Source: Deltaproteobacteria bacterium
GTDB lineage: Bacteria; Desulfobacterota; Syntrophobacteria; BM002
Assembly: GCA_022340745.1 (NCBI GenBank)
Contig: JAJDNL010000239.1
Location: forward strand, 155-64,154
Reading direction: 5' to 3'
DNA length: 64,000 nt
The notes beneath the pieces were generated by a model. The model was not told the DNA's origin. It saw nothing but the letters and a program-made list of their open reading frames with translations, and searched no databases. The stretch's first letter is position 1. Every line of letters starts with the position of its first letter. Shown piece by piece: positions 3,328 to 62,494 of this stretch. The translations under genes and the position numbers were made by a program.

Positions 3328-3896
3328 AAAATCTTTTCGCCGCCAAATGCTTAAAATACCGTCCCGCCCTGCCCTCTCCAAGTGGATTCCCCACCTGTAT
3401 CTGCAGCGCCAAGCCTCAGCCTAAGCGCTCTGCGCACCAGCAGGCTGCTGAAAAACTCAATATTTTGACTATGAGCATCAGGTCCGTCATTCCGGAAGGC
3501 GCGAAGTCCGCCTGCGGCGGAGAATCCAGTAAAAAAACAGCCCACTGGATACCGGATCTCGACTTCGTCTCGTCGGGTATGACGTTTGGGATTGTTTCCA
3601 GGATTTTTTAGCAGTCTGCAGGGAGCTTCAATATCGAATAAGGAATTTCGAACAGCAGAAGTTTCTAGAAAAAGTAAGACAATGTTTTTCACTTCGATAT
3701 TCTGCGGTTCATATTCTCGAAGACTGGATAGCTGATACTTGAGTGCTGACCGGGGAGACTGATCCGATTTTATGGCTCCTCCAGGGGCTGCCCAGAGCTG
3801 AGTTTTTGGAGCAGGATTTTTTACTCGCAACAAAGCGTTGGCTAAGGGAAGATAAGGGAATATCCCAAAACTTCCAAGGTGTGGTTACGCCTCCGG

Positions 3897-4700
3897 TTAC
3901 AATTTGTGAATCGGGCGATCCCCCTGTTGCTCGTAATAGGGCATCATCTCAGGTACATACTCGGCGAGTTTTTTCTCGCGGTTTGCCGGAGACGGGTGGG
4001 TACTGAGAAATTCGGGGGGACCTTTCCCACCAACCTGGGCCATCTTCTGCCAGAGGGTGATCGCAGCCCGTGGGTCATAGCCCGCCTTAGCTGCCAGCTC
4101 AATCCCGATACGATCCGCTTCAGACTCCGCTGTCCGACTGTTTGGTAACTGGACAGCCAGTGCAGCGGCAAGCGCCGCCCCTGTTAGTGCCAACCCCTTG
4201 CGATCAGAGGCGACACCCACCGCAGCCACTCCAACGGAAGTGGCCATGGCAATCGACATCTGTTCGGCGGAATGATTAGCCAAAGCGTGGGCAATCTCGT
4301 GTCCGAGGACTTGGGCCAGTTCATCATCCGTCGCTTTGAGCTGTATCACCAGACCACTATAGAGGGCCATCTTACCGCCGGCCATGGCCCAGGCGTTCAC
4401 TGTTTTCGGATCATCGATGATTTTGATACTCCAGTCCCACTTTTCCGTCTCCGGCCGCATTTTTATGGCCTGGGCAATCAATCGCTCGGTAATCTTATAG
4501 ACCCGAGCCTTCAAGGCCGGATCATTATCGACCTTGCCCTGCTGTTCATAGGGCTTTATCATCTCGACATACGCCTGTTTGGAGGCGGAAATGGCTGATT
4601 CCTCCGAGACGATCATGAGCTGAGGTCTTCCTGTAGGACTGGTAGCACAGCCAATGATAAATGCTATGCAAAAAATAAAGCCCAGATATTTTTTCTTCAT
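3897..4700 (-). CDS. M48-family zinc metallopeptidase lipoprotein (BepA/YfgC-like)
   Basis: HEIAHALANH (HExxH) zinc motif and M48 core. Best start is MKKKYLGFIFCIAFIIGCATS, a lipoprotein signal with lipobox Cys, at 4700; the longer upstream ORF extension is unlikely. Confidence 0.75.
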   Translation of the reverse strand: MKKKYLGFIFCIAFIIGCATSPTGRPQLMIVSEESAISASKQAYVEMIKPYEQQGKVDNDPALKARVYKITERLIAQAIKMRPETEKWDWSIKIIDDPKTVNAWAMAGGKMALYSGLVIQLKATDDELAQVLGHEIAHALANHSAEQMSIAMATSVGVAAVGVASDRKGLALTGAALAAALAVQLPNSRTAESEADRIGIELAAKAGYDPRAAITLWQKMAQVGGKGPPEFLSTHPSPANREKKLAEYVPEMMPYYEQQGDRPIHKL

Positions 4701-7594: not shown

Positions 7595-7680
7595 AGAAAT
7601 TGAGGGATTGAGGAGCACCGGTCTTTTTGAGAGAGTCTGGTGCAACGAGAGTAATGCAGTACTGCAAAATATAAGCTTCC

Positions 7681-7780
7681 AAGCACAAAATCTGAAGGTG
7701 TCGGGTGTCAGGTGTCAGGTGTCAGTGAGGAAAACAAAAAAACTGAAACCTGAACACTGAAACCTGAAACCTTCTCTACA
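7681..7780. repeat. heptamer-built hairpin element (family D): (GTGTCAG)3 arm / A-rich loop / (CTGAAAC)n arm
   Basis: AAGCACAAAATCTGAAGGTGTCGGGTGTCAGGTGTCAGGTGTCAG...AACTGAAACCTGAACACTGAAACCTGAAACC; arms are imperfect reverse complements. Ends 5 bp before the dxr GTG start. Confidence 0.7.
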
Positions 7781-7785
7781 TTAAG

Positions 7786-8964
7786 GTGAAAGGAAACGTT
7801 CCTTTGAAAAAAATCGCTATTCTCGGCTCCACAGGCTCCATTGGGCGCAGTGCCCTGCAGGTAGTCGAGCAATTTCCAGACCGTCTCCAGGTTGTCGCTC
7901 TAGCAGCAGGAAGAAACATCGATCTGTTAGCTGAGCAAATTCACCGCTTTCGACCCAAGCTAGCGGCGGTTCTTGATCCTCAGCTGGCCAAAGATCTAAC
8001 CAGTCGCCTGCAACCGGGCATCGAGGTGGAAGTGGTTGCCGACTCGACAGGCTATCAGCAGGTAGCCAGTTGTGCTGAGGCAGAAATGATACTCTCTTCC
8101 ATGGTCGGCGCCGCAGGACTTATCCCCACTCTCAGTGCCATTCGGGCCGGTAAGGACGTGGCATTAGCCAACAAGGAAACTCTGGTAATGGCTGGCGCCC
8201 TCGTCATGGGGGAGGTCCGCCGGTCTCAGGTGGAACTGCTTCCGGTGGACAGCGAACACAACGCCATCTTTCAAGCCTTGGAAGGACACCGCCGAGAAGA
8301 TCTTAAGCGTATTTTACTTACTGCCTCGGGCGGTCCCTTCCTGAACCTGCCCAAAGAGCAACTCGAATCCGTAACTCCAACCCAGGCTTTGGCTCACCCC
8401 AACTGGTCCATGGGTCCCAAGATTACCATTGATTCAGCCACCCTCATGAATAAAGGTCTGGAGGTCATTGAGGCTAAGTGGCTGTTTGACATTCCAGTGG
8501 AAAAAATAGATGTTCATGTCCATCCTCAGAGTATTGTCCACTCCATGGTGGAATACATTGACGGCTCGGTCATTGCCCAGATGGGTATACCTGACATGCG
8601 TATTCCCATAGCCTATGCCTTAGCCTATCCGGAACGTCTAGAGCTGGACCTGCCTCGCTTGGATTTTTTCACCGTGCAAACCCTTACGTTTCAGGAACCC
8701 GACCTCAACCGGTTCCCCTGCCTGAAATTGGCCTTTGCCGCTTGTAAGGCGGGTGGCACTATGCCAGCCGTTCTTAATGCTGCAAATGAGGTTGCAGTCC
8801 AGGCTTTTCTGGATAACCGCATCCCGTTTAGCGGAATTCCCAGATTGGTGAACCTGGCCATGGAAGAGCATGCCCTGGACCCTGGCGCTGAGCTTGAGGC
8901 CATTCTGGAAGCCGACGCCTGGGCGCGGCGACGAACCGAAGAGGAAATTCCTAATCTTCGATAA
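7786..8964 (+). CDS. dxr: 1-deoxy-D-xylulose 5-phosphate reductoisomerase
   Basis: 392 aa. ILGSTGSIG NADPH-binding N-terminus and LANKE...DSEHNAIFQ core are diagnostic of Dxr. Confidence 0.95.
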   Translation: MKGNVPLKKIAILGSTGSIGRSALQVVEQFPDRLQVVALAAGRNIDLLAEQIHRFRPKLAAVLDPQLAKDLTSRLQPGIEVEVVADSTGYQQVASCAEAEMILSSMVGAAGLIPTLSAIRAGKDVALANKETLVMAGALVMGEVRRSQVELLPVDSEHNAIFQALEGHRREDLKRILLTASGGPFLNLPKEQLESVTPTQALAHPNWSMGPKITIDSATLMNKGLEVIEAKWLFDIPVEKIDVHVHPQSIVHSMVEYIDGSVIAQMGIPDMRIPIAYALAYPERLELDLPRLDFFTVQTLTFQEPDLNRFPCLKLAFAACKAGGTMPAVLNAANEVAVQAFLDNRIPFSGIPRLVNLAMEEHALDPGAELEAILEADAWARRRTEEEIPNLR

Positions 8965-17163: not shown

Positions 17164-17336
17164 TAGCCCGGATATTTCATGAAATATCCGGGCTCAATCT
17201 ATTCCCCTCCCAGGTAGTATCCAGGAAGGGGAAATTTTTCTTTACAGTGGGGTCAACTGCTTGGTGGTGTCACCACTTGCGGCTGACACCACCGTGATGA
17301 ATGTTAGCCCGGATATTTCATGAAATATCCGGGCTA
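17164..17336. mobile_element. MITE-A compound copy: two minimal 31-bp perfect palindromes flanking a 110-bp hairpin-rich core
   Basis: TAGCCCGGATATTTCATGAAATATCCGGGCT occurs at 17164-17194 and again at 17305-17336. The segment between them contains a 10-bp stem (GGTGGTGTCA...TGACACCACC). Lies 9 bp upstream of the leuC start. Confidence 0.7.
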
Positions 17337-29891: not shown

Positions 29892-30129
29892 AACCAACTC
29901 TCCTCGTGCTTCTCTTTGTCATTGGAAAATGAGTCTATGATTACTTTCTTATTTAGCTCCAGTCCAGGGTAATAGATTCTGAAGAGAACCTATGAATCAA
30001 GGGAAGAGCGGTAGGATTTCGGCCTGCTACCATAGTACACACTGGCGTAAATCTCAAGCACCAAATCTGAGGGTGTCAGGTGTCAGGGAAGCAAGAAAGC
30101 CAACCGCTGAACACTTAAACCTCAATTAT

Positions 30130-30601: not shown

Positions 30602-30675
30602 GAGGTTTCAGTGTTCAGGTTTCAGCTTTTATTGCTGTATTTCCTGACACCTGACACCCGACACCTGAAACCTCC
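30602..30675. repeat. family D heptamer hairpin element copy, inverted orientation
   Basis: GAGGTTTCAGTGTTCAGGTTTCAG...CCTGACACCTGACACCCGACACCTGAAACC. Together with a partial copy at 30058-30100 it brackets the FKBP-like gene. Confidence 0.6.
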
Positions 30676-30805
30676 ACAAAAGCCCGCAATCTTCACCTAC
30701 AACCCTGCCACGGGCGGGAGTCACCTGGTCTCCGGTGCACAATGATTTGCTTTTTTCTTGACTTGCCGCTACTATCTGACGGTCATCAACGAAAAGGGAG
30801 TAAGT

Positions 30806-31306
30806 ATGGCGAGGCTAGGGACTGTGCAAAAAAAAATATCTTTGTTTACCATGATCGTGACGATGTCCATTACTTTTTCTTTCCTTTCCGCCGCAAATGT
30901 TAGAGGCGGCAATCTCATGGATCTCACGTTGGTGGATGTGGATGGGAAGAAGGTGAGTCTCGATCAGGTGGCTGGGGACCAACTGCTCCTGCTTTATTTT
31001 TGGGCTACCTGGTGTAAGCCCTGTCGAAAAGCACAACCCAAGGTTGCCGCACTTGCCGAAAAATATAAGGACATGGTTAAGGTGGTGGGAATTAATGTGG
31101 GAGAATTGGATTCGCCAAAAGATATAAAAAAATATATTTCCCGTCAAAAGATCACCTACACCATGTTAATTGACCACAACGATGAGGCAGTGAAAAAGTT
31201 CTCCGTTGCTGCCATCCCAGTGATTATCCTTTTGGATGAAACCGGTAAAATCTTGTTCCGCGATCATGAGCCGCCGGCAAATCTGGATAAGTTCTTCTCT
31301 GAATAG
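30806..31306 (+). CDS. TlpA/ResA-like thiol-disulfide oxidoreductase (thioredoxin fold), exported
   Basis: WCKPC active site inside LLLYFWATWCKPCRK; N-terminal signal/anchor; RBS AAGGGAG upstream. Its TAG stop is the first three bases of a solo MITE-A terminus. Confidence 0.7.
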   Translation: MARLGTVQKKISLFTMIVTMSITFSFLSAANVRGGNLMDLTLVDVDGKKVSLDQVAGDQLLLLYFWATWCKPCRKAQPKVAALAEKYKDMVKVVGINVGELDSPKDIKKYISRQKITYTMLIDHNDEAVKKFSVAAIPVIILLDETGKILFRDHEPPANLDKFFSE

Positions 31307-31689: not shown

Positions 31690-31873
31690 TAGCCCGGATA
31701 TTTCATGAATGACTTGCTGCGACCACGGATATGCACGTCCTTCCTGGCGTCCTCGGATGTCGGCCCCTGCAACGTACGGTACAGGTACGCCTCGGAACCG
31801 ACACCCTGCGGTTGCCAGGTTGCACGCCCATCTTCGTGGTCTCGCGACAGCAATTCATGAAATATCCGGGCTA
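31690..31873. mobile_element. MITE-A copy (184 bp), terminal inverted repeats TAGCCCGGATATTTCATGAA
   Basis: Perfect 20-bp TIRs; internal nested inverted repeat (TTGCTGCGACCACGG...CTCGCGACAGCAA). Core shares GTACGTCGCA...CGACACCCGAGGACGCC...ATATCCGCGGTCGCAG blocks with the other copies. Confidence 0.75.
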
Positions 31874-32646
31874 GGTTTCAAGGCGGTGACCAGCATACGT
31901 TTGTTGAGAAGACCGTAATCGTCGGCCTTTGGGTGAGAAACCAGAAGACCACCACAGTCGATTTGCTGGAAGCCGCTTTCAGTGAGGAGCGCTTCCATAT
32001 CTTGGGGCTGGAAAAGCCGGGCAAAGTAGCGAACATCTCGGATAAGACCACGTTCTTTACTCAAAACAATTTCCCTCACCAAAACCCCTTCGTCTTGTAG
32101 TTGACGTTCCCGACATACCACCACATCTTCATTGGCCTCGTGCCAACTGCTGGGCTTGAATTGCCGGCGCGCGTAGTCGCTGTGGATTAAGTCAAGGAGC
32201 ACCCTACCGCCTGGTTTCAACAAGCGGCGGATCTCTCGAAGTATCTCCTGGTTCTGGCTGTCTTCTTTGAAGTAACCAAAGGAATTTCCCATAACCAATA
32301 CCACGTCAAAGCTTTCGTCCGCCAACCCTACCCTACAGGCATCACCGCGACAGAAATGTATCGAGGAGTCGATTTTCGTGGCAGCGTGAGAACCCACTTC
32401 TAACAATACCTGCGAGTAGTCAACCACCATCACATTTCTGTAGCCGCGCCTGGTCAACTCGATGGCATGTCGCCCTTGACCGCCACAAAGGTCGAGAATG
32501 AGATCGTCAGTCCTGAGGCTGAGAGTGGCCTCAACCATGTCGACCTCGGTAGCTGTTACTTCCGGGCAACACACACTACGAGCGTCAGTTACAAGATACG
32601 TCTCGTCAAAAATATGTTGCCACCAAGTGGGATCATATTCATCCAT
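31855..32646 (-). CDS. class I SAM-dependent methyltransferase
   Basis: Motif I VLDLCGGQGRHAIEL and motif post-I/II (LKPGGRVLLD). Confidence 0.75.
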   Translation of the reverse strand: MDEYDPTWWQHIFDETYLVTDARSVCCPEVTATEVDMVEATLSLRTDDLILDLCGGQGRHAIELTRRGYRNVMVVDYSQVLLEVGSHAATKIDSSIHFCRGDACRVGLADESFDVVLVMGNSFGYFKEDSQNQEILREIRRLLKPGGRVLLDLIHSDYARRQFKPSSWHEANEDVVVCRERQLQDEGVLVREIVLSKERGLIRDVRYFARLFQPQDMEALLTESGFQQIDCGGLLVSHPKADDYGLLNKRMLVTALKPSPDIS

Positions 32647-32923
32647 AACTACCTCTCCACTGCCGGGAGGGGGCTAACCATTTGGTAACAGAGGGGGATT
32701 CTGTCTGCGCAGTCAGAAAATCCCAAATCCGAATATCTAAATCCTAATGACCAAAACTAAGAATGATTCTATTTGTGCAATTTTGTTTTGAACATTGGAA
32801 AATTGGGATTTAGAATTTGTTTCGAGCTTCGGATTTAGGATTTCGGATTTATTATCTGCCGTTTTCGGCTCGAAATTCGGAATTCGAAACTTACGCTTCT
32901 TTCGAGAGAAGTTGCTTCCCGCA

Positions 32924-34312
32924 CTACTCTTGAGGATGAGAGCCGAAGGAGAAAAGCCCATCACTTGCCATCAAGGCTGGTTGTCCGGTCCAGGGGGCGG
33001 TCCTGGCAATGGCTTCCTCTTCAGCGGCAATATGGACAAAATCGTCCAACCTTCCCGCCCGCCACCACTCAGTCAACTGCACAGCGTCAGCCCACAGGTT
33101 CTCGCAGTAGACTTGCAGTTGTTTCATCTGAGCCTCATTTATGAGCCGCGGTCGCCAAGCGGTCATTATCGGGCCCAACAGATAAGTGTGCCCCATGGCC
33201 ACGGCCTGCTCATTCACTTCCTGGCGAATTTCTTCAAGTAAGCTGTACTGCACTCGACAAATGGCTGCATTGATTTGCTCTGCCACTTCGCCCCCGGGAG
33301 TGGTTCTCGGCAGGAGAGCAAGCGCCTGGGTGCCACCTCCAGCCCCAACATTCGTAGGAATTCCGCCAAAACGGCCCAGAAAACCGATCAGTCCCGCATC
33401 TGTGATGAGGCAGCGAAAATCCGTCTGCCACCTTTGCAATCCCACCCTTTGCTCTTCGCTGAAAAGCCAGGGGGAGTCTTCCGCCCACAGAGGAAGTGGC
33501 ACCAGTTCCTGCACAATATAATCGCCGGCCGTGAGAGCCTCCTGGAGATCTGCATCCGGGTCTTCACTCTTGAAGCCGATAAAGATCCCTTCGCCGGAAT
33601 AGCCTTGCACGGGCTTGAGCACCAGCCGATCCCAATTCTCCTTGGTCCAGGTCACCAAATCGTTTATGGCCTCGTCCTCGGGCCCGGTGGTAGATCTCTC
33701 ATACAATTGCCTCGTCCAAGGTGTTCTTTGAACCGTGGTCTCATGCAACTGCTCACGTAGGGAATCGGTAACTGCTTCAAATATACCTTTGGCTCCCGCA
33801 GGCTCCATCCCGCGAGGGTTCACAACCAGATCATCTTTGATGGCTTGACGTAGGGCCGTGAGGGGTCCGTCTTTTTCCATCTTTAAAAGCACGTCATTGT
33901 TGAAATCCATAAAGATCAAGGTTACCTGAAGGCCCTGGTGGTACAGAGATCCTTTATGATAATCAAGCTCCTGCGGGGCGGCCAGTGCCGCCGTTACCTC
34001 ATCGATACTACCTAGATACTGGACAAAATTTCGGTTTTCAACGACTGTATCCAGCGTATCAGGCTCGGCCACCAGAACGATGTGAGCTGCTTGGTTTCCA
34101 TTCCGTTTCTTATGAGCTCGAAGCAAGGCAGCTGCAAAAGCAGGTACCGGATTCAAAAATTCATGGTCGAAATCAAGACGAATATCCAAGCCTAAATGAG
34201 GTTGCAGCAGACGCCATGCTAATTTACCCAACTCCTGGGTGATTCGTTGATATTCCCAACCACCAGGACTGCCGAGATTCCACTCCGAGTGATAACCTAA
34301 GAAATCTTCCAC
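32924..34312 (-). CDS. ATP-grasp fold ligase-like protein (GshB/RimK-type core with extra N- and C-terminal regions)
   Basis: 462 aa. Central LVLKPVQGYSGEGIFIG (ATP-binding Lys loop), DYIVQELV, and ...GRFGGIPTNVGAGGG (R-x-N-x-x-GG) match ATP-grasp segments. Confidence 0.5.
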   Translation of the reverse strand: MEDFLGYHSEWNLGSPGGWEYQRITQELGKLAWRLLQPHLGLDIRLDFDHEFLNPVPAFAAALLRAHKKRNGNQAAHIVLVAEPDTLDTVVENRNFVQYLGSIDEVTAALAAPQELDYHKGSLYHQGLQVTLIFMDFNNDVLLKMEKDGPLTALRQAIKDDLVVNPRGMEPAGAKGIFEAVTDSLREQLHETTVQRTPWTRQLYERSTTGPEDEAINDLVTWTKENWDRLVLKPVQGYSGEGIFIGFKSEDPDADLQEALTAGDYIVQELVPLPLWAEDSPWLFSEEQRVGLQRWQTDFRCLITDAGLIGFLGRFGGIPTNVGAGGGTQALALLPRTTPGGEVAEQINAAICRVQYSLLEEIRQEVNEQAVAMGHTYLLGPIMTAWRPRLINEAQMKQLQVYCENLWADAVQLTEWWRAGRLDDFVHIAAEEEAIARTAPWTGQPALMASDGLFSFGSHPQE

Positions 34313-34339
34313 AGATACCTCCCTCGTTCGTGTCCACCC

Positions 34340-34424
34340 GAATGTCGGGTGTCAGGTGTCAGGTGTCAGGGAAGAAAAACAAAACAACTGAAACCTGAAC
34401 ACTGAAACCTGAAACCTCTTCTAC
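34340..34424. repeat. family D heptamer hairpin element copy
   Basis: GTCGGGTGTCAGGTGTCAGGTGTCAGGGAAGAAAAACAAAACAACTGAAACCTGAACACTGAAACCTGAAACC; immediately upstream (5' side) of the ATP-grasp gene on the other strand. Confidence 0.7.
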
Positions 34425-34520
34425 CGACAAAGACATTGAACTATGACCCCCGCAAGGCGGGATCGTGGACTGGCCCCAAGGACCAGGTTTTCGATGTTAA
34501 ATAAGTGCTGACTAACCAGT

Positions 34521-36188
34521 TTATTTGAAGCCACCTGCAGCTGAACTACCATCCTCCGTCAGATTTTCAAATCTCCAGGCAGCAAGATGAAATGGTATCT
34601 CGCCCCCCTCCAATAGGAGCCGGTGAAAATGCTGCCAGCCAAACGCGGGGAGAAAACGTTGCCGCAGCTCCATAATCTCGTATTTCCCCAGGCTGTAACA
34701 CAGCTGGTAGCCAGGATTCAACCGAAATCGTTCCACTTGAGCCATTGCCTCGTCCGCCGCGAAACCTACTGATACGAGGAGATCGGCACCCTTTTCCATG
34801 GTAAAGCTCTGCATGGCCAGGCCGGAGTCTATCAAACACCGAGCTGCCCGCCACAGTCTTCTCTTACAATCCACCAGGAGTTCCAACTCGTCCTTTACAT
34901 ACCCGGATTCGGCAAGAATAGCTTCCGCATAGTAGGCCCACCCTTCATAGAAAAGGGGCGATTCGATTTGACGCCGCACAGGGTTTTTCAGGTGTCGCCG
35001 GATGCTGTCCAATAAATGATGTCCGGGATAGGTTTCGTGTCCAGAAAGAAACCTGTACTCACGATGTAACCGTTGCCTGCGGAGTACGTCCATGTGTGAA
35101 TTGCCGGCTGTATTACCAGCGGTAATGTAGAAGTAGGCCTGTTCACCAGGGTCAATAGTTAACGGCGCGCTGTATGAGGCACCACTTCTCACTGATCGTA
35201 AATAGGTTGGTGTTTCGCTGAGTACTACCTCCTGGTCCAGATGGCCATCTAACAGCTTGAGTTTTTGGCAAAGATCACGAAGACTTTCTATTTCATCACC
35301 GTAGAGGCGAAAAAGATCCAGTTCTTCCCCTGTGCCAGGTAGGTAGTTCTCATAAAGCTGCTGCCAATCCTGGCTGGGATCGATGCTTCGACGCAGCCGG
35401 TCCATTTCTTCCTGGCTGTCCTGCCATTCTTCCTCAGCGATGGCGAAAATTTCCTCCAATGGCCTATTGCAGCCGAAATGGCGCTGAACAAGCTCTTCTA
35501 CCGAAATCGACTGAACCGACGCTGCGGGTGTCGGTCCAATTGCTCGCAGTCTCTGGGAAAAAGCAGCAAGCGCATGCTGGGCTTCGTTGCACACTCGTAC
35601 CAGTTGTCTCCGGTGGCTCTCTCTCCTCACCTCTCGAAGAAGTTCTTCAAGATACTCTTGCGCATCCTTACCCATCGCCACTGCGGCCCGATAGTAGGGC
35701 CCGGGGATGGTGCTTAAATTCTTGCCCGCTTGCCTCAACAAGCAGCTCAGACCAGCAAGCCGTTCAATAGTACGCTCGAAACGCTCCTTTTCGTCGGCGG
35801 CAGGCTTGTTCACAGCATGATCCACCCCGATACAACCGACCTTGAGATACATCAGAGGATTATGACGCCAGGATTGGACCTCTTCTAATTCAATGAGCAC
35901 GCCAGCCATGTTGTGCAGCAGAAACTGCCGATCAATTTCCTCTTCGAAATCCTGAGCCGCTGGTTGTTTTCGCAATTGGTTCTGCAGGTCACGCACGGAC
36001 GCCCCCACTGTTCCAATTGCTTCCTGGCTCAATTCGTCCGTACGGTCCAAAAACTGTACCGCTTCTTGGACACGGGGCAGAAAGTGGAATTCATCACTGG
36101 CGCACATCACCGGAAAAGCTCTGGCGAGTAAGGAGAAGTACTCTTCGGCTATTCTGCTTATCTGGCTTTCCGGCTGATCTGACATCAT
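34521..36188 (-). CDS. DUF885-family protein (putative metallopeptidase-like)
   Basis: About 555 aa. Contains HETYPGHHLL, which matches the conserved HE-x-x-PGHH block I associate with DUF885. Start set at MMSDQ. Confidence 0.55.
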   Translation of the reverse strand: MMSDQPESQISRIAEEYFSLLARAFPVMCASDEFHFLPRVQEAVQFLDRTDELSQEAIGTVGASVRDLQNQLRKQPAAQDFEEEIDRQFLLHNMAGVLIELEEVQSWRHNPLMYLKVGCIGVDHAVNKPAADEKERFERTIERLAGLSCLLRQAGKNLSTIPGPYYRAAVAMGKDAQEYLEELLREVRRESHRRQLVRVCNEAQHALAAFSQRLRAIGPTPAASVQSISVEELVQRHFGCNRPLEEIFAIAEEEWQDSQEEMDRLRRSIDPSQDWQQLYENYLPGTGEELDLFRLYGDEIESLRDLCQKLKLLDGHLDQEVVLSETPTYLRSVRSGASYSAPLTIDPGEQAYFYITAGNTAGNSHMDVLRRQRLHREYRFLSGHETYPGHHLLDSIRRHLKNPVRRQIESPLFYEGWAYYAEAILAESGYVKDELELLVDCKRRLWRAARCLIDSGLAMQSFTMEKGADLLVSVGFAADEAMAQVERFRLNPGYQLCYSLGKYEIMELRQRFLPAFGWQHFHRLLLEGGEIPFHLAAWRFENLTEDGSSAAGGFK

Positions 36189-36420
36189 TCGTGCTATTTT
36201 ATTGAGGTTATGAATTCCGAAATGAGAAACACGAAGCACGAAACAAATTCAAAATTCAAATTTTCCAATATTCAAAACAATTTCTTTCCGGAAAGCAATT
36301 ACCATTTTGGCCATTTGGATTTCGAAAATTTGAAAATTGTTTCGGATTTCGATATTCGGATTTCGGAGTTTGAAACTATCGCTGCGGATCTGGGACACCT
36401 TCTGGTTACCAGCGATCATT

Positions 36421-37059
36421 CTAACCAAAATCTAAGTCTGGGGGTACCTCCCAGTCGTCGCCGAGAAAAAGCGGGAGCTCAGCGATGCAGATCGGACCCA
36501 CCCTTACCTTCCAGCCAGTCTGCCTCGCCAGTGGCTCCTGCAACGAGGAGGCGAATCCGGGAAGAATCATCTCCCGCTTCGCCTTTTCGTGGTTCAACTG
36601 TGAATCTTCCAGGTGGGCAGCTATCTTTTCGGCTTTCAATGACTGGTAGATCATGGCCATATCAACGGTATCTCCGCGGCAATCAACGCAGAGCAGCCAA
36701 AAAGGACTAAGAGTGCAGGCCATTATTGAGGTAAGCACTTCTTGGGTAAACTCGCTGTTGCCTGAAACGATGAGCAGGCTGCGTTCGTTCGCCTGGTTAA
36801 TCTCCGTCAGCCCTTCAGGGGCTGGGCGTGGTAGCTCCAGGGCAGGGACTTGGGGAAGAAATTGGTCGGCCTTCATAGCCAAATAGAAAGCCCGTACTTG
36901 GTTGCCCTTTAGAGAGGGGCAGTTGTCCGGCGTCCGGGTTCCGTTTTTCATGTGCTTTACGAAAGCAGCACAAGAAACCTCTCCGCACTCTTTACAGTCA
37001 GTCCGCGGGAGATATTGGAGAAAATCGATTCTTTTCAGGTAAAGGTCAGCTGCAATCAT
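36421..37059 (-). CDS. Fe-S cluster protein with CFeSP/RnfB-type N-terminal 4-Cys domain (PF04060-like)
   Basis: N-terminal LPRTDCKECGEVSCAAFV is the C-x2-C-x4-C...C pattern found at the N-terminus of the corrinoid Fe-S protein large subunit and RnfB. The remainder (about 150 aa with a CVDC pair) is unassigned. Confidence 0.5.
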   Translation of the reverse strand: MIAADLYLKRIDFLQYLPRTDCKECGEVSCAAFVKHMKNGTRTPDNCPSLKGNQVRAFYLAMKADQFLPQVPALELPRPAPEGLTEINQANERSLLIVSGNSEFTQEVLTSIMACTLSPFWLLCVDCRGDTVDMAMIYQSLKAEKIAAHLEDSQLNHEKAKREMILPGFASSLQEPLARQTGWKVRVGPICIAELPLFLGDDWEVPPDLDFG

Positions 37060-37515: not shown

Positions 37516-37707
37516 CTAGAGCCGCTCCAAAGTGTTTTATTTGTTCATCTTATATCATAATAACAAGGAATTGTATAGTGAAAGTGGTCACTCCCCTGTA
37601 CTCATCAGCCATGCGATAGCCTGCTGGAGTAATGGAGTGGCGAAGCATTGCAGAATATCAAATTGGTCCTTCGGACACCCCACCCTGCGGGCGGGTCCCC
37701 GGTTTCC

Positions 37708-37786
37708 AAGCACAAAATCTCTGGGTATCAGGTGTCGGGTGTCAGGGAAGAAAAACAAAACAACTGAAACCTGAAACCTCCTCTAC
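37708..37786. repeat. family D heptamer hairpin element copy
   Basis: AAGCACAAAATCTCTGGGTATCAGGTGTCGGGTGTCAGGGAAGAAAAACAAAACAACTGAAACCTGAAACC. Confidence 0.7.
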
Positions 37787-38041
37787 CGGCACAGCCATTG
37801 AACGCTGACTTGGCCCCAAGGTCTAAGTTTTCATCTTGAAAATGCTCCAGCGAGCGCATTCCCCGTAGCGACACGACTTGAGCGACACGACCTGAGCTCG
37901 TCGACAGGTCTCGTCGACAGGTCTTGCTGCAGGGAGCTTCAATAAATAGAGGAGCTCCCGACAAGGTAATTCTGTGTCTTGACGATTGTTTATGCTAAAA
38001 TGTTGCGGTCTTTTCTACTGATCTAGTCTTGGAGGTAATGT

Positions 38042-39730
38042 ATGAAGGTTCGAAAGTTGGTCATTGTTGGTGGTGTGGCCGGAGGTGCTTCTGCCGCAGC
38101 CAAGGCGAGGCGCTGTAGCGAAGCAGTGGAAATCATCATGTACGAAAAGGGGCCGGATATCTCTTACGCTAATTGTGGCCTCCCCTACTATCTTTCTGGC
38201 GTCATCGAGAAGCGGGAAGATTTGCTCATCACCTCTGCCGAGTTCTTTCGCCGCCGCTTTCAGGTGGATGCCCGAACCAGTCACGAGGTCATTCAGATAG
38301 ACCGCGATAGCAAAAAAGTGATTGTGAAGAATCTCAATACAGGGCAGATGGAAGAAGAATCCTATGATCGTTTAATCTTGGCCCCCGGCTCTCACCCCAT
38401 AGTACCGCCGGTACCCGGTATAGATCTTCCTTTCGTTTTTTCCTTAAAAACTCTTGAAGACACCGATCGCATATTCAACTACCTTCAGAACAAAAATCCC
38501 CGCAGGGCCGTGGTAGTGGGCGGCGGCCTTATCGGCATTGAAGCTGTCGAGAATCTTGCTCTCAAAGGACTCGAAACCACCGTAGTGGAACTTGCCCCGC
38601 AGGTACTCACCTTCTTGGATTGGGAAATGGCTGAGATGGTCCGCTTGCATATGCGTCAAAAAGATATAAACCTCTGTCTTTCAGAAGGTTTACAGTCAAT
38701 AGAGGAGCAAAACGGCCAAGGGTTGGTGCGCACCGACAAAGGTGGAGAAATCCCCGCTGACCTGGTTCTGGTGGCGATTGGTGTCAGGCCCAACGTTGAT
38801 CTTGCCCAGAATGCGGACCTGGAACTAGGTGTTACCGGCGGGATTAAAGTCAACGAGTTCATGCAGACCAGTGACCCTGATATCTTTGCTGCAGGCGACT
38901 GTATCGAATCCATGAACCTGGTGACCGGCAAGCCGGTTCTCACGCCCATGGGCTCAGCGGCAAACAAAGAAGGACGTGCCGCCGGGGCCAACGCCCTTGG
39001 TCGCAGCATTGCGGTCAAAGGTTTTACCGGTACCATTATTGTCAAGGTCTTCGACCTGACCGTAGCAAAGACTGGCCTATCTGAAAGGGAAGCGATAGCG
39101 GAAGGCTACTCCCCTCTGCCCCTTTATGTGCAACCCGGCCACCACGCCGGCTACTATCCAGGATCCAAGCCCCTCCATATTAAGACTGTGACCGAACGAG
39201 AGAGCGGTAGACTCCTTGGGGCCCAGGTTATTGGGGAGGAGGGAGTAGACAAGCGTGTGGACGTTTTCGCCACCGCCATCTACCAGCAAATGCGTTTGGA
39301 GGATCTCCTTCAACTTGATCTGGCCTATGCCCCTCCCTACTCAGCGGCCAGAGACCCGGTGATAATTGCCGGTGCGGTAGGCCAGAATTATTATCAAGGT
39401 GACTGGGATCCCATCAGCCCCCACGAATTGAAAACGAAAATGGATGCGGGAGAATCCTTTGTGCTGGTGGATGTCCGCACCAGATTGGAACTGCAAGACA
39501 GAGGACCCTTGCCAGGTGCCCTCCATATTCCCATAGATCTTCTCCGAAGGCAGTTGCAGAAACTGGATCCTGAGAAAGAAACCATTTTGTATTGTGCCCA
39601 GGGATTCCGCTCCTACTTGGGCAACCGAATCCTGGCCATGCGTGGCTTCAAACGGGTCAGGACTCTCTCAGGGGGCATGGATAACTGGATGTATGAGGGG
39701 GAATCAGCCCCTGCCCAGTCGGCTGATTAA
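38042..39730 (+). CDS. CoA-disulfide reductase with C-terminal rhodanese domain (CoADR-RHD)
   Basis: FAD/NAD(P) Rossmann VIVGGVAGGASAA, CoADR redox Cys in SYANCGLPYY, C-terminal rhodanese with active Cys in ILYCAQGFRS. Confidence 0.85.
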   Translation: MKVRKLVIVGGVAGGASAAAKARRCSEAVEIIMYEKGPDISYANCGLPYYLSGVIEKREDLLITSAEFFRRRFQVDARTSHEVIQIDRDSKKVIVKNLNTGQMEEESYDRLILAPGSHPIVPPVPGIDLPFVFSLKTLEDTDRIFNYLQNKNPRRAVVVGGGLIGIEAVENLALKGLETTVVELAPQVLTFLDWEMAEMVRLHMRQKDINLCLSEGLQSIEEQNGQGLVRTDKGGEIPADLVLVAIGVRPNVDLAQNADLELGVTGGIKVNEFMQTSDPDIFAAGDCIESMNLVTGKPVLTPMGSAANKEGRAAGANALGRSIAVKGFTGTIIVKVFDLTVAKTGLSEREAIAEGYSPLPLYVQPGHHAGYYPGSKPLHIKTVTERESGRLLGAQVIGEEGVDKRVDVFATAIYQQMRLEDLLQLDLAYAPPYSAARDPVIIAGAVGQNYYQGDWDPISPHELKTKMDAGESFVLVDVRTRLELQDRGPLPGALHIPIDLLRRQLQKLDPEKETILYCAQGFRSYLGNRILAMRGFKRVRTLSGGMDNWMYEGESAPAQSAD

Positions 39731-40158: not shown

Positions 40159-40422
40159 TAGCCCGGATTTTTCATGAATTGCTGTCGCGAGACCGAGAGA
40201 CTGGGAACCCGCTTGCGGGACTGAGCGGAGCGCAGCGAGCGCGAAGAGGATGGGTGTACCACCGGGAAACCGCAGGGGGTTGGATCTGAGGTGTACTTGA
40301 ACAGTACGTCGCAAGATCCGACACCCGAGGACGCCCGGCTTCCGGCTCGGAGAGCCTACAGCTCGGAGAGAAGGACAGTCATATCCGCGGTCGCAGCAGG
40401 CAACTCGTGAAATATCCGGGCC
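40159..40422. mobile_element. MITE-A copy (264 bp)
   Basis: TAGCCCGGATTTTTCATGAA ... TCGTGAAATATCCGGGCC termini; core blocks GTACGTCGCAAGATCCGACACCCGAGGACGCCC and ATATCCGCGGTCGCAG shared with the 47315 and 56645 copies. Confidence 0.7.
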
Positions 40423-46919: not shown

Positions 46920-47333
46920 ATGTCTGAAAGACTGATAGAGAAAATCGCCCTGCCAAACGGTTTGATTCTAGAAATCTGGGACACATCTCACCTCATGGCG
47001 GGCGACAGATGGTTGGTCTCGCTTCTCGCCAAGGTGGAAGTCACTGTCTTGCCCGAGTACTTCTCTCCACTTGACGATGGCGAACAGGCTTACCAAGATC
47101 TGGTCGCCGCCCATGGCAACTCTCTGGTTTTTACCCAGGAAAAAGTGAGACTTTTCGTGGATAAAGGCGAAACCAAAGAGGTGCTCACCAGACTGCGCCG
47201 GAGCATCAAGGACAATCTGGCAGCATATCTCGGCAACCCCAAATTTGCCTCGTCTTACGTACTGAAAAAATATGGCGACCTCCGAGATCGCCAGAATTGG
47301 GGCGCCGCCCCCCCTAGCCCGGATGTTTCATGA
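46920..47333 (+). CDS. hypothetical protein, 3' end defined by MITE-A insertion
   Basis: ORF with no family recognised. Its last codons and its TGA stop lie inside the MITE-A left terminus (…GCC CCC CCT AGC CCG GAT GTT TCA TGA). Confidence 0.35.
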   Translation: MSERLIEKIALPNGLILEIWDTSHLMAGDRWLVSLLAKVEVTVLPEYFSPLDDGEQAYQDLVAAHGNSLVFTQEKVRLFVDKGETKEVLTRLRRSIKDNLAAYLGNPKFASSYVLKKYGDLRDRQNWGAAPPSPDVS

Positions 47334-47550
47334 AAATGCTATAGCGAGCGCGTCCTCCGTAGCGACTCGACCTGAGCGACACGACCTGAGCTCGTCGACA
47401 GGTCTCGTCGACAAGTCTTGCTGCGGGGTTAGCGAGCGAATTACAATAAAACGGTACGTCGCAAAGTGCGACACCCGAGGACGCCCAGAAGGACGCCTAT
47501 ATCCGCGGTCGCAGTCCGCCGTAGGCGGAATTCATGAAACATCCGGGCTA
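47315..47550. mobile_element. MITE-A copy (236 bp)
   Basis: TAGCCCGGATGTTTCATGAA ... TTCATGAAACATCCGGGCTA termini; same core blocks. The left TIR supplies the last codons and TGA stop of the upstream ORF 46920-47333. Confidence 0.75.
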
Positions 47551-47824: not shown

Positions 47825-48211
47825 CCACTGTTCACCTCTCTTTCACCATAAAAAAAGCCCTTTTCACAGGGCCCAGCCGCAACTTTCTTTGGCATGAATC
47901 GTTGTAAGGAACTGAACCTCTTCATGGTCTCAGAAGTTATCTACCAAAGCAATCGTGCTGCTGCAGTCCCCTATCAACTTTTTATCTAACATATCCTCTT
48001 GGCAGTGGCAACCCCGCACCCCTCAGGAGTTACTCCATTCCTTTGCTCACTTGGCAGATGATAGGTTGAACCGCAGAATATCGAAGTGAAAAACATTGTC
48101 TTATTTCTTTCAAAAACTTCTGCCGTTCGAAATTCCTCGTTCGATATTCACAAACGACTATTTACTTCACTCCGTATTATAGCGACCCAAGGAAGGCTGA
48201 TTGAATATCTA

Positions 48212-48440
48212 CCACAGAGGCACAGAGATCACGGAGGAGGTTGTTTTTTCCCTGGCCGGGAGACGACGGCCAGGGAAAAGAGCCTCCGCCTTCGGCGAAA
48301 GCTCCTTAACTGGTTCCAACCGATGACATCAAACCACCGGGTTACTTGATCGTGCCCGCAGGGCTGCGATCTTTTGCCCGATCGCCGTCTCCCGATCGGG
48401 CAAAAAAAATATTCCCTCTGTGCTCTCCGTGTCTCTGTGG
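48212..48440. mobile_element. MITE-B copy 1 (229 bp), TIR CCACAGAGGCACAGAG
   Basis: Termini CCACAGAGGCACAGAG...CTCTGTGCTCTCCGTGTCTCTGTGG. Internal hairpins (CCCTGGCCGGGAGACGACGGCCAGGG; TTTTGCCCGATCGCCGTCTCCCGATCGGGCAAAA). About 90 percent identical to the reverse complement of copy 2. Confidence 0.75.
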
Positions 48441-48561
48441 TTAGTAAATAAAAGTGGATATCGAAATCTAGTATTGATAGCATGCGCAGCTGAGGGAATA
48501 GGCGTTATTCAAAATTGAAAACAGGCTGAATCCCGCTTTAATCATAACTGAAAGTGCGGCA

Positions 48562-51759: not shown

Positions 51760-51864
51760 ACAGCATGGCTTACTCAAAGCTGAGAATCACTTTACCAAAA
51801 CGCCCATGCCATTAACTCCGCATACCATGGATACTAGATTTCGATATGCACTTTTATTTACTAA

Positions 51865-52094
51865 CCACAGAGACACGGAGAGCACAGAGGGAACCATTTC
51901 TCTTGCCCGATCGGGAGACGGCGATCGGGCAAGAGATCGCAGCCCTGCGGGCACGATCTAGTAACCGGGTGGTTCATGCCTACGGTTGGATCTAGGCTAA
52001 AGAGCTTTCGCCGCAGGCGGAGGCTCTTTTCCCTGGCCGTCGTCTCCCGGCCAGGGAAAAAACAACATCCTCCGTGTCCTCTGTGCCTCTGTGG
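51865..52094. mobile_element. MITE-B copy 2 (230 bp), inverted relative to copy 1
   Basis: CCACAGAGACACGGAGAGCACAGAG...CCTCTGTGCCTCTGTGG; same internal hairpins in reverse orientation. Confidence 0.75.
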
Positions 52095-52209
52095 TAAATT
52101 TTCACTCAGGCTTCATTAGGCCGCAACCACACGGAGCAGAGTAAATAGTCGTTTGCAAAATCCGATTAGCAGAAAAGATTCAAACATTAGGGGATTGGGG
52201 GAGCAAAAT

Positions 52210-56582: not shown

Positions 56583-56644
56583 GCAGCAAGAATACTCCTA
56601 TTTCGCCTAGATTTAAACGGTATTGTCGAGCACAATGCACAACC

Positions 56645-56828
56645 CAGCTCGGATGTTTCACCAATTGGTGTCGCGAGACCGCAATGATGAGTGTGCCACC
56701 GGGCAACCACAGGGTGTCGGATCCGAGGCGTACTTGAACAGTACGTCGCAGGGTCCGACACCCGAGGACGCCCGGGAGGACGATCATATCTGCGGTCGCA
56801 GCAGGTGATTCGTGAAATATCCGGGCTA
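56645..56828. mobile_element. MITE-A copy (184 bp) with degenerate left terminus
   Basis: CAGCTCGGATGTTTCACCAA ... TTCGTGAAATATCCGGGCTA; core nearly identical to the 40159 copy (GTGTACTTGAACAGTACGTCGCA...GGTCCGACACCCGAGGACGCCCGG). Confidence 0.7.
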
Positions 56829-61768: not shown

Positions 61769-62494
61769 CTACTTCTCGTCCTCGTCTTTGGCTTTCTTGG
61801 TCCTACCTTTTTTCTTTTTGGCAGTTTTTGTAGCTTTCTCTGACTCAGGCTCTGAGGCCTCTTCAGCTGCCGGGGCTTCGGCTTTCGCCTTTTTCGCGGG
61901 TTTACGCTTCTTCTTTTTCTCTTCGACAGCTTCCTCTGCTACCGCCTTTTCAGCTGCCGGTGCTTCGGCTTTCGCCTTTTTCGCGGGCTTACGCTTCTTC
62001 TTTTTCTGCTCGACAGCTTCCTCTGCTACCGCCTCTTCAGTTGCAGCTTCCTCCTCTACTATCTCCTCAACAGCCGGAGGTGCAGCCTCTACAGCTTTGC
62101 GGGGTTTGCGTTTCCTCTTCTTTTTCTTCTTTGCAGCTTCCCCGGTCATCAGCTCGATGAGACTCAATGGGGCACCATCACCAACCCGAAAACCTACTCT
62201 TACCATACGAGTGTAGCCGCCACTGCGGGCCTGATAACGCTGGGCCAGATCAGTAAATAATTTGTGAACCACCGCCTTATCTCGTATGACTTGGAGTGCC
62301 TGGCGTCTGGCGTGCAGATCTCCCCTTTTTCCCAAGGTTATCATCCAATCAGCCCAGCGCCGAAGCTCCTTGGCCTTGGCATGGGTGGTGTATATACGTT
62401 CGTGATCCAGCAGCGAAGTCACCATGTTGCGAAACATGGCCAACCGATGGCTGGAAGAGCGATTCAGCTTTCTCCCACTCTTGCCGTGTCGCAT
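61769..62494 (-). CDS. rplQ: 50S ribosomal protein L17 with long Lys/Ala/Glu-rich C-terminal extension
   Basis: N-terminal 120 aa are canonical L17 ([24 protein letters not shown]...). The C-terminal 120 aa are a low-complexity [19 protein letters not shown] repeat. rpoA-rplQ synteny. Confidence 0.9.
61864..62037. repeat. 87-bp direct tandem duplication inside the rplQ C-terminal extension (2 copies, about 95 percent identical)
   Basis: Copy 1 at 61864-61950 and copy 2 at 61951-62037 differ at about 4 positions. Encodes the repeated AVAEEAVE(Q/E)[19 protein letters not shown](K/E) 29-aa unit. Confidence 0.8.

Follow-up and report, generated by a model that had tools for sequence, protein, structure and literature searches.

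The 64-kb window analyzed here (64,000 nt of contig JAJDNL010000239.1, to which all coordinates refer unless a relative's locus is named) carries a three-gene cassette on its minus strand, encoding a DUF885 protein, an ATP-grasp carboxylate-amine ligase, and a class I S-adenosylmethionine (SAM)-dependent methyltransferase. Judged from gene order in related genomes, the functional unit is a same-strand operon that runs from 36239 down to 31855 and is inherited as a block. On balance, we propose that its products ligate, N-methylate, and hydrolyze a small amide metabolite in the cytoplasm. A preliminary description of the locus had grouped a different trio, in which the ligase and the DUF885 protein were joined by an upstream iron-sulfur protein. 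The three minus-strand open reading frames (ORFs) of that description are all present (462 aa, 572 aa, and 212 aa), as are the motifs quoted for them (LVLKPVQGYSGEGIF, DYIVQELV, RFGGIPTNVGAGGG, HETYPGHH, and the cysteines C22/C25/C30/C47). Its interval omits the methyltransferase gene at 31855-32646, which is the gene most tightly linked to that of the ATP-grasp ligase.

This definition of the unit is carried by comparison across genomes. When one genome per species was scanned by pattern, 438 genomes proved to encode a relative of the ATP-grasp protein. The best 80 loci (17 kb each) were fetched, their ORFs were searched with the window's proteins, and adjacency was scored only where a locus had room on the relevant side or sides. 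In 51 of 62 loci, the DUF885 gene is the immediate same-strand neighbor upstream of the ATP-grasp gene; the methyltransferase gene lies directly downstream in 64 of 73, and the full order from DUF885 through ATP-grasp to methyltransferase is kept in 43 of the 56 loci with room on both sides. Unsupervised clustering of neighboring ORFs returns these three families as the only recurring ones (ATP-grasp in 79 loci, DUF885 in 64, methyltransferase in 63); no other family occurs in more than 12 loci, all of them within the window's own syntenic clade. The closest of the best 80 loci come from Syntrophobacterales/Syntrophobacteria genomes (ATP-grasp identity 92-94%). Carriers include Syntrophobacterales, Desulfobacterales, Desulfatiglandales, Desulfomonilaceae, Omnitrophota, Planctomycetia, and Brocadiales, with ATP-grasp identities of 50-55%. 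The neighborhood check that the preliminary description had called for, of DUF885 genes beside ATP-grasp genes, therefore gives a clear answer: the linkage is conserved across three phyla (Desulfobacterota, Omnitrophota, and Planctomycetota), and the cassette behaves as an old conserved block. The cassette genes overlap or abut in distant members, as in L003, where the DUF885 and ATP-grasp genes overlap, and in L084, and the cassette is probably co-translated. Linkage in at least 43 of the 80 loci gives both DUF885 and an uncurated ATP-grasp family a concrete shared context. The combination of the three families was not found in the literature searched, which excluded the 2009 amidoligase-neighborhood survey of Iyer et al.

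Could the three be unrelated housekeeping genes that are neighbors by chance? None of them has a defined function, and about a quarter of loci are without one of them. Order, strand, and overlapping stop and start codons nevertheless persist across three phyla while all flanking genes differ, which makes coincidence very improbable.

Variants of the cassette offer further clues to its chemistry. Two tandem ATP-grasp genes are present in five loci, which suggests two ligation steps. In one such two-ATP-grasp locus (L032), a lysine-2,3-aminomutase-like radical SAM gene (3476-4615, plus strand) lies directly upstream of the DUF885 gene on the same strand; this neighbor hints at a beta-amino acid as the cassette substrate in some lineages. 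A methyltransferase-GNAT fusion of 438 aa (L084, 83-2819, plus strand) is translationally coupled to an ATP-grasp gene of 58% identity, whose stop codon it overlaps. Fusions of this type, again overlapping the ATP-grasp gene, are typical of one subclade, and with them some cassette versions add an acetyltransferase step. Long apparent ATP-grasp fusions in six other loci (L011, L017, L018, L048, L074, and L083) were rejected, most having been pulled in by single-linkage clustering. They proved to be histidine kinases, a Lon-like protein, and a truncated ATP-grasp ORF that continues into a histidine kinase (L017), and the ORF with ATP-grasp similarity in L083 also contains a TonB-receptor barrel.

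The ATP-grasp assignment is borne out by the predicted fold, which is closest to the peptide-spermidine ligase YgiC and to glutathione, glutathionylspermidine, and trypanothione synthetases. The window's protein has no Pfam match at E ≤0.01 and no NCBIfam model, and it falls short of the gathering thresholds of PF04174, PF14403, and PF03738. CP_ATPgrasp_2 is weakly matched by 9 of 28 relatives (best E 1.1e-05), and the divergent full-length members tested have no Pfam match at all. An HMMER scan of 1.84 billion cluster representatives returned only 37 clusters below 1e-30; full-length members extend down to about 27% identity, beyond which the nearest relatives are CP_ATPgrasp_2-like proteins. 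The family is unclassified, and it is related to the group that comprises glutathionylspermidine synthetases, eukaryotic-type glutathione synthetases, and circularly permuted ATP-grasp proteins. Within it, mean column identity is 63% across phyla. K233, G237-Y-S-G-x-G242, Q268, D298, R300, R314, N321, and G325-327 are invariant in 28 sequences, and they include candidates for the superfamily's ATP/Mg2+-binding elements (central-strand Lys, Gly-rich loop, and acidic/Asn Mg ligands). A different circular order may account for the termini of the ligase that the preliminary description left unassigned. Core residues 60-335 align to the C-terminal 180-460 of CP_ATPgrasp_2-like relatives, and the last 127 residues (336-462) align, weakly but consistently, to the N-terminal 10-120 of the same proteins. 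These faint matches suggest a circular permutation between the two families.

The methyltransferase matches Methyltransf_25/11 in Pfam. Among solved structures it is most closely related to 9ri2, the bacillithiol N-methyltransferase NmbA of Chlorobaculum tepidum (phmmer 2.1e-20; family profile 9.2e-31), with 31% identity over 177 aa in a match near full length; glycine/sarcosine N-methyltransferases are the next sequence relatives. A model of the cassette enzyme (pLDDT 89.6) has structural matches in 1Y8C, 3D2L, CypM, CcbJ, 1WZN, GSMT, and 9RI2. This is the neighbor set reported for NmbA, with which the enzyme also shares the class I fold, and all but one of these structures have a four-strand cap domain. 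Those with a known acceptor are mostly N-methyltransferases, together with some C-methyltransferases. Biochemical work has shown that NmbA methylates bacillithiol on its cysteine nitrogen (PMC12719100; PMC6282198). NmbA clusters are defined at 35% identity or more, and outliers may methylate other acceptors (PMC12719100). The cassette enzyme differs from NmbA in being linked to ATP-grasp and DUF885 genes, a pair not known to accompany bshA-C, and no Bsh enzyme is among the recurring neighbor families of the 80 loci. Its acceptor probably differs from that of NmbA. Many orthologues are labeled 'D-alanine-D-alanine ligase' by JGI, evidently a mis-transfer and perhaps one from methyltransferase/ATP-grasp fusion proteins, which could mislead automated annotation.

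Assignment of the third protein to DUF885 is secure (PF05960, 1.6e-51, 177 bits against a cut-off of 32.4), the match spanning residues 65-551 of the protein and positions 14-526 of the 532-position profile. Its relatives in the Protein Data Bank (3o0y, 3u24, and 3iuk) are all of unknown function. An alignment of 53 sequences, comprising the window copy and 52 cassette-linked relatives at about 34% overall identity, holds H401, E402, P405, G406, H407, H408, E426, Y431, E432, G433, W434, and E439 invariant. A signal-peptide-like N-terminus is found in none of the 53, in contrast with the solved 'lipoprotein' DUF885 structures. As read from this alignment, the cassette DUF885 is a cytoplasmic protein with its metal-hydrolase-type motif intact. 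The called GTG start at 36239 lies within a repeat, and for this reason an ATG near 36188, 17 codons downstream, is preferred and is probably the true start. It gives a protein of about 555 aa; the L001 relative has 554 aa.

The proposed pathway would begin with the ATP-grasp protein, which would convert the carboxylate of an amino acid or short peptide into an activated acyl-phosphate and couple it to an amine acceptor. The closest structural relatives perform this step, namely glutathione, glutathionylspermidine, and trypanothione synthetases, YgiC, and Cp1B. By analogy with NmbA, the methyltransferase might then N-methylate the residue just added, on its free alpha-amino group, and the fused GNAT domain would add an acetyl cap in some lineages. 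Two roles are conceivable for DUF885: deacylation that exposes the amine acceptor, as in the role of MshB/BshB, or amide hydrolysis for turnover, comparable to what the GspS amidase, Mca, or a carnosinase does. Such a pathway would yield a small N-capped amide. The earlier notion of a ligase and a peptidase-like protein working jointly in small-molecule amide chemistry is backed by conserved linkage in three phyla.

Several characterized systems resemble parts of this scheme. The pairing of ligase and amidase in GspS may be mirrored by the cassette's ATP-grasp and DUF885 proteins. GspS has a fused CHAP amidase, whereas the window has a separate DUF885 hydrolase, an extra methyltransferase, and a different domain order. 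Ligase identity to GspS/trypanothione synthetase-amidase and to E. coli YgiC/YjfC is only 10-14%, and the Pfam models of that group are unmatched. Against the eukaryotic-type glutathione/homoglutathione synthetases, PF04174, PF14403, and 3n6x, the window's ligase lies below the Pfam cut-offs and its circular order appears to differ. Circularly permuted ATP-grasp families are usually partnered by alpha-E and transglutaminase-like proteins, both of which are absent here. In mycothiol and bacillithiol synthesis, a metal hydrolase first releases an amine, a ligase then attaches an aminoacyl group, and an acetyl or methyl N-cap is placed last (MshD/NmbA). The cassette would fit this logic by analogy, but its proteins are not homologous to MshB/BshB or MshC/BshC, and it contains no glycosyltransferase. 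An ATP-grasp enzyme, an N-capping enzyme, and a product-degrading metallopeptidase also come together in the metabolism of the bacterial osmolyte N-acetylglutaminylglutamine amide (NAGGN; Ngg, GNAT plus ATP-grasp) and of N-acetylaspartylglutamate (NAAG; NAT8L, RIMKLA, GCPII).

Our first choice for the product, offered tentatively, is a new N-methylated cysteine-containing low-molecular-weight thiol; the presence of an NmbA-like methyltransferase beside a glutathione-synthetase-like ligase makes such a thiol a reasonable target. A sulfur-free N-methyl or N-acetyl dipeptide-like solute, suggested by analogy, has a similar share of our confidence. Were the thiol reading correct, the compound might serve as a redox buffer of sulfate-reducing/syntrophic Desulfobacterota, Omnitrophota, and anammox-type Planctomycetota, with the new ATP-grasp family as the cysteine/peptide ligase and DUF885 as the deacylase/amidase. 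This fuller picture is speculative, and doubtful to the same degree. It would give a first function to DUF885, a large family with several solved structures and no demonstrated activity in the literature searched. To our knowledge, the redox and osmotic small-molecule chemistry of uncultivated anaerobes has been little studied.

A number of observations weigh against a small-amide pathway, and against the thiol in particular. The methyltransferase's 31% identity to NmbA places it outside the 35% clusters. The HExxPGHH motif of DUF885 (HETYPGHH) departs from the canonical HExxH spacing of Peptidase_MA zinc metallopeptidases, and no functional study of the family was found in the literature searched. 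Cassettes that lack one partner, about a quarter of the loci, count here as well. The immediate flanks of 20 diverse loci are heterogeneous and give no consistent pathway hint: they include a radical SAM lysine-aminomutase-like protein, a beta-eliminating lyase, an MFS transporter, a CN-hydrolase, an M54 peptidase, and a universal stress protein. The carriers among the 80 loci are all uncultivated anaerobes. In the window's clade, a CoA-disulfide reductase-rhodanese gene and a thioredoxin-like redoxin gene flank the cassette, a context that fits thiol or persulfide chemistry; both are kept only where the whole region is syntenic.

An alternative is modification of a protein or peptide. The ATP-grasp enzyme would add amino acids at a protein's terminus or on a side chain in the manner of RimK and tubulin ligases, the methyltransferase would act on a protein or peptide N-terminus in the manner of CypM, and DUF885 would be a trimming peptidase. 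This alternative is unlikely, though less so than the chance association considered above. The preliminary description saw no precursor peptide, and a search for small ORFs under relaxed criteria in all three spacers bears it out: the spacer ORFs are translations of repeats, and many relatives, whose genes abut or overlap, have no room for such a gene. Conservation of the spacer ORFs is impossible because the spacers of relatives are short or absent. The precursor peptide gene beside an ATP-grasp ligase that is expected of a graspetide, or other RiPP (a peptide made by ribosomes and modified after translation), was not found.

Features of the cassette and its surroundings in the window
Feature	Position	Strand	Basis and remarks
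Class I SAM-dependent methyltransferase, NmbA-like, 263 aa	31855-32646	-	Pfam, phmmer, synteny; third (downstream) cassette gene
Spacer, 277 nt, heptamer-rich dispersed repeat (~32718-32888)	32647-32923		Repeat scans
ATP-grasp carboxylate-amine ligase, 462 aa	32924-34312	-	Unclassified family; central cassette gene
Spacer, 208 nt, (GGTGTCA)n ... (CTGAAAC)n module at 34328-34447	34313-34520		Repeat scans
DUF885 zinc-metallohydrolase-like protein, 572 aa as called	34521-36239	-	PF05960; first cassette gene
Spacer with dispersed repeat module (36213-36370)	36240-36420		Repeat scans
Small corrinoid/iron-sulfur protein, 212 aa	36421-37059	-	PF04060 and PF03599; clade-specific neighbor outside the conserved cassette
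PilZ-domain protein, 110 aa	37183-37515	-	PF07238, 4.7e-13; upstream syntenic neighbor in the window's clade only
CoA-disulfide reductase and rhodanese fusion, 562 aa, divergent	38042-39730	+	Pyr_redox_2 and Rhodanese; clade-specific context
Miniature inverted-repeat transposable element (MITE)-like element, 188 nt	31690-31877		19-nt terminal inverted repeats AGCCCGGATATTTCATGAA; outside the cassette

A promoter and terminator scan of 31.6-38.1 kb leaves the operon boundaries unreadable, because its counts are no higher than in shuffled sequence. The Rfam scan of 29-41 kb matched no riboswitch or small RNA, and the PADLOC defense models returned only a single generic methyltransferase-domain match.

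The 212-aa protein that the preliminary description counted as the third member of the trio has the four-cysteine [4Fe-4S] domain ascribed to it (PF04060, 1.6e-10, at the N-terminus). The remainder had been called an unknown domain and is instead a familiar one. Residues 80-190 match PF03599 positions 268-378, in the profile's C-terminal part (3.5e-13), and the residues to which the protein aligns in 4djd_C, the 446-aa large subunit of a Moorella-type corrinoid iron-sulfur protein (CFeSP), are 6-46 and 317-431. By these matches, the protein ends in the CFeSP large subunit's corrinoid-binding domain. Like that subunit (AcsC/CdhE), the protein combines [4Fe-4S] and corrinoid domains, here joined directly as a 'mini-CFeSP'; it differs in lacking the central TIM barrel, and NF003195 scores 96 bits against a cut-off of 306. 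The NCBIfam matches (acetyl-CoA decarbonylase/synthase gamma subunit, HgcAB-like, and HgcA) are all far below their cut-offs. HgcA has a transmembrane domain, which the 212-aa protein is without. At the position of the HgcA cap-helix cysteine motif, it reads DCRGDTVDMAM. Neither the CFeSP small subunit nor genes for acetyl-CoA synthase/CO dehydrogenase were seen among the neighbors scanned.

Conserved linkage of the proposed trio therefore holds in one part and fails in another: DUF885 and ATP-grasp genes are strongly linked, and the corrinoid/iron-sulfur gene is not. It adjoins the cassette in only 10 of the 56 loci, all from the window's own clade, and is absent from the other 46. The family has 552 homologues, of which the 120 listed are all at least 61% identical, and appears to be clade-restricted. 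A protein encoded in a 'Deltaproteobacteria bacterium' metagenome-assembled genome (locus tag LJE87) is 100% identical to the window's copy. Recruitment of this protein into a clade-specific unit of four or five genes, for instance to carry methyl groups or as a reductive activator, might account for the order PilZ, corrinoid/iron-sulfur protein, DUF885, ATP-grasp, methyltransferase in 10 of 10 close-clade loci, down to 77% ATP-grasp identity; the corrinoid domain is also related to those of CFeSP and HgcA, which are both methyl carriers. Such adjacency says little because the close-clade genomes are syntenic throughout, including an unrelated PRPP synthetase gene and the redoxin gene. The cassette methyltransferase is SAM-dependent and needs no corrinoid, and the Rfam scan of 29-41 kb found no cobalamin riboswitch. 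An extended unit of this kind is quite unlikely. The corrinoid/iron-sulfur gene is a bystander that, like the PilZ gene and the repeats, is a lineage feature overlaid on the cassette. The CoA-disulfide reductase-rhodanese gene is likewise found in 10 loci, all of the close clade, and its product matches TIGR03385 at 5e-146 (487 bits, below the cut-off of 579). The redoxin gene lies at 30758-31306 on the plus strand, on the other flank of the cassette.

Repeats fill all three spacers at frequencies far above chance, as the preliminary description had noticed. The spacer repeat GGTGTCAGGTGTCAGG has 11 matches against 0.01 expected, and TTCGGATTTCGGATTT, with similar sequences, has 18 against 0.85. 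The segment 32783-32850 pairs with 36213-36280, one arm of the 36213-36370 module being its inverted copy, and another part of that module copies 1092-1152. Copies of the 34328-34447 module lie at 7677-7802, 30052-30094, 30603-30676 (inverted), and 37704-37809. The spacer families also occur at about 1, 7.7, 24, 30, 37.7, and 57.7 kb, and the whole window holds 28 direct-repeat families and 40 inverted pairs. The spacer repeats are a feature of this genome's intergenic DNA, without specificity for the locus, and are mobile or dispersed elements without bearing on function.

The repeats had been read as the bounds of an island acquired piecemeal, in which the ATP-grasp ligase, DUF885, and a redox iron-sulfur protein tailor a peptide or small molecule. 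In the window and its close clade, the three genes are indeed same-strand neighbors, and repeats do occupy the spacers. The same repeat families, however, extend across the whole window and so bound nothing, and they are absent from the same spacers in syntenic relatives. The equivalent spacers measure 84 nt (DUF885/ATP-grasp) and 77 nt (ATP-grasp/methyltransferase) in L001 and about 105 and 118 nt in L010; DNA similarity stops within the spacers, and the genes stay collinear. The gene array is older than the repeats, because relatives keep its order with short, repeat-free spacers, and the spacer repeats are later insertions into an older syntenic array. The locus shows no compositional deviation (GC 0.49-0.55, inside the window's range), the tRNA scan found none nearby, no integrase was seen among the neighbors scanned, and synteny holds in all close relatives, a pattern that does not fit a horizontally acquired island. 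With the iron-sulfur gene missing from most loci besides, this island model is the least likely of the explanations considered and scarcely credible.

The MITE-like element downstream of the cassette extends into the 3' end of the methyltransferase gene, whose last five codons and stop it provides. The gene ends ...AAA CCT AGC CCG GAT ATT TCA TGA, with the TGA inside the element, such that the window's protein ends ...KPSPDIS* and its relatives end ...KP. The terminal repeat AGCCCGGATATTTCATGAA has 14 matches in the window against 0 expected. Other MITE-like copies (the element being about 190 nt) lie at approximately 17165-17335, 40160-40422, 47316-47549, and 56641-56828.

Two further features were seen elsewhere in the window. 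Inverted repeats of about 450 nt at 48067-48518 and 51787-52155 are 85-94% complementary in three colinear pieces, have no Rfam match, and bracket a 3.3-kb segment that encodes an enoyl-CoA hydratase, a beta-eliminating lyase, and a SAM hydroxide adenosyltransferase. A further 82-nt copy of this repeat lies at 3630-3711. Possible readings of the pair are an invertible or composite element and a duplication of regulatory DNA. Ribosomal protein L17 (61769-62494, minus strand) has a C-terminal extension of about 125 aa in which Lys, Ala, and Glu are abundant and within which 61857-62030 forms a tandem repeat of a 29-aa (87-nt) unit at 94% identity.

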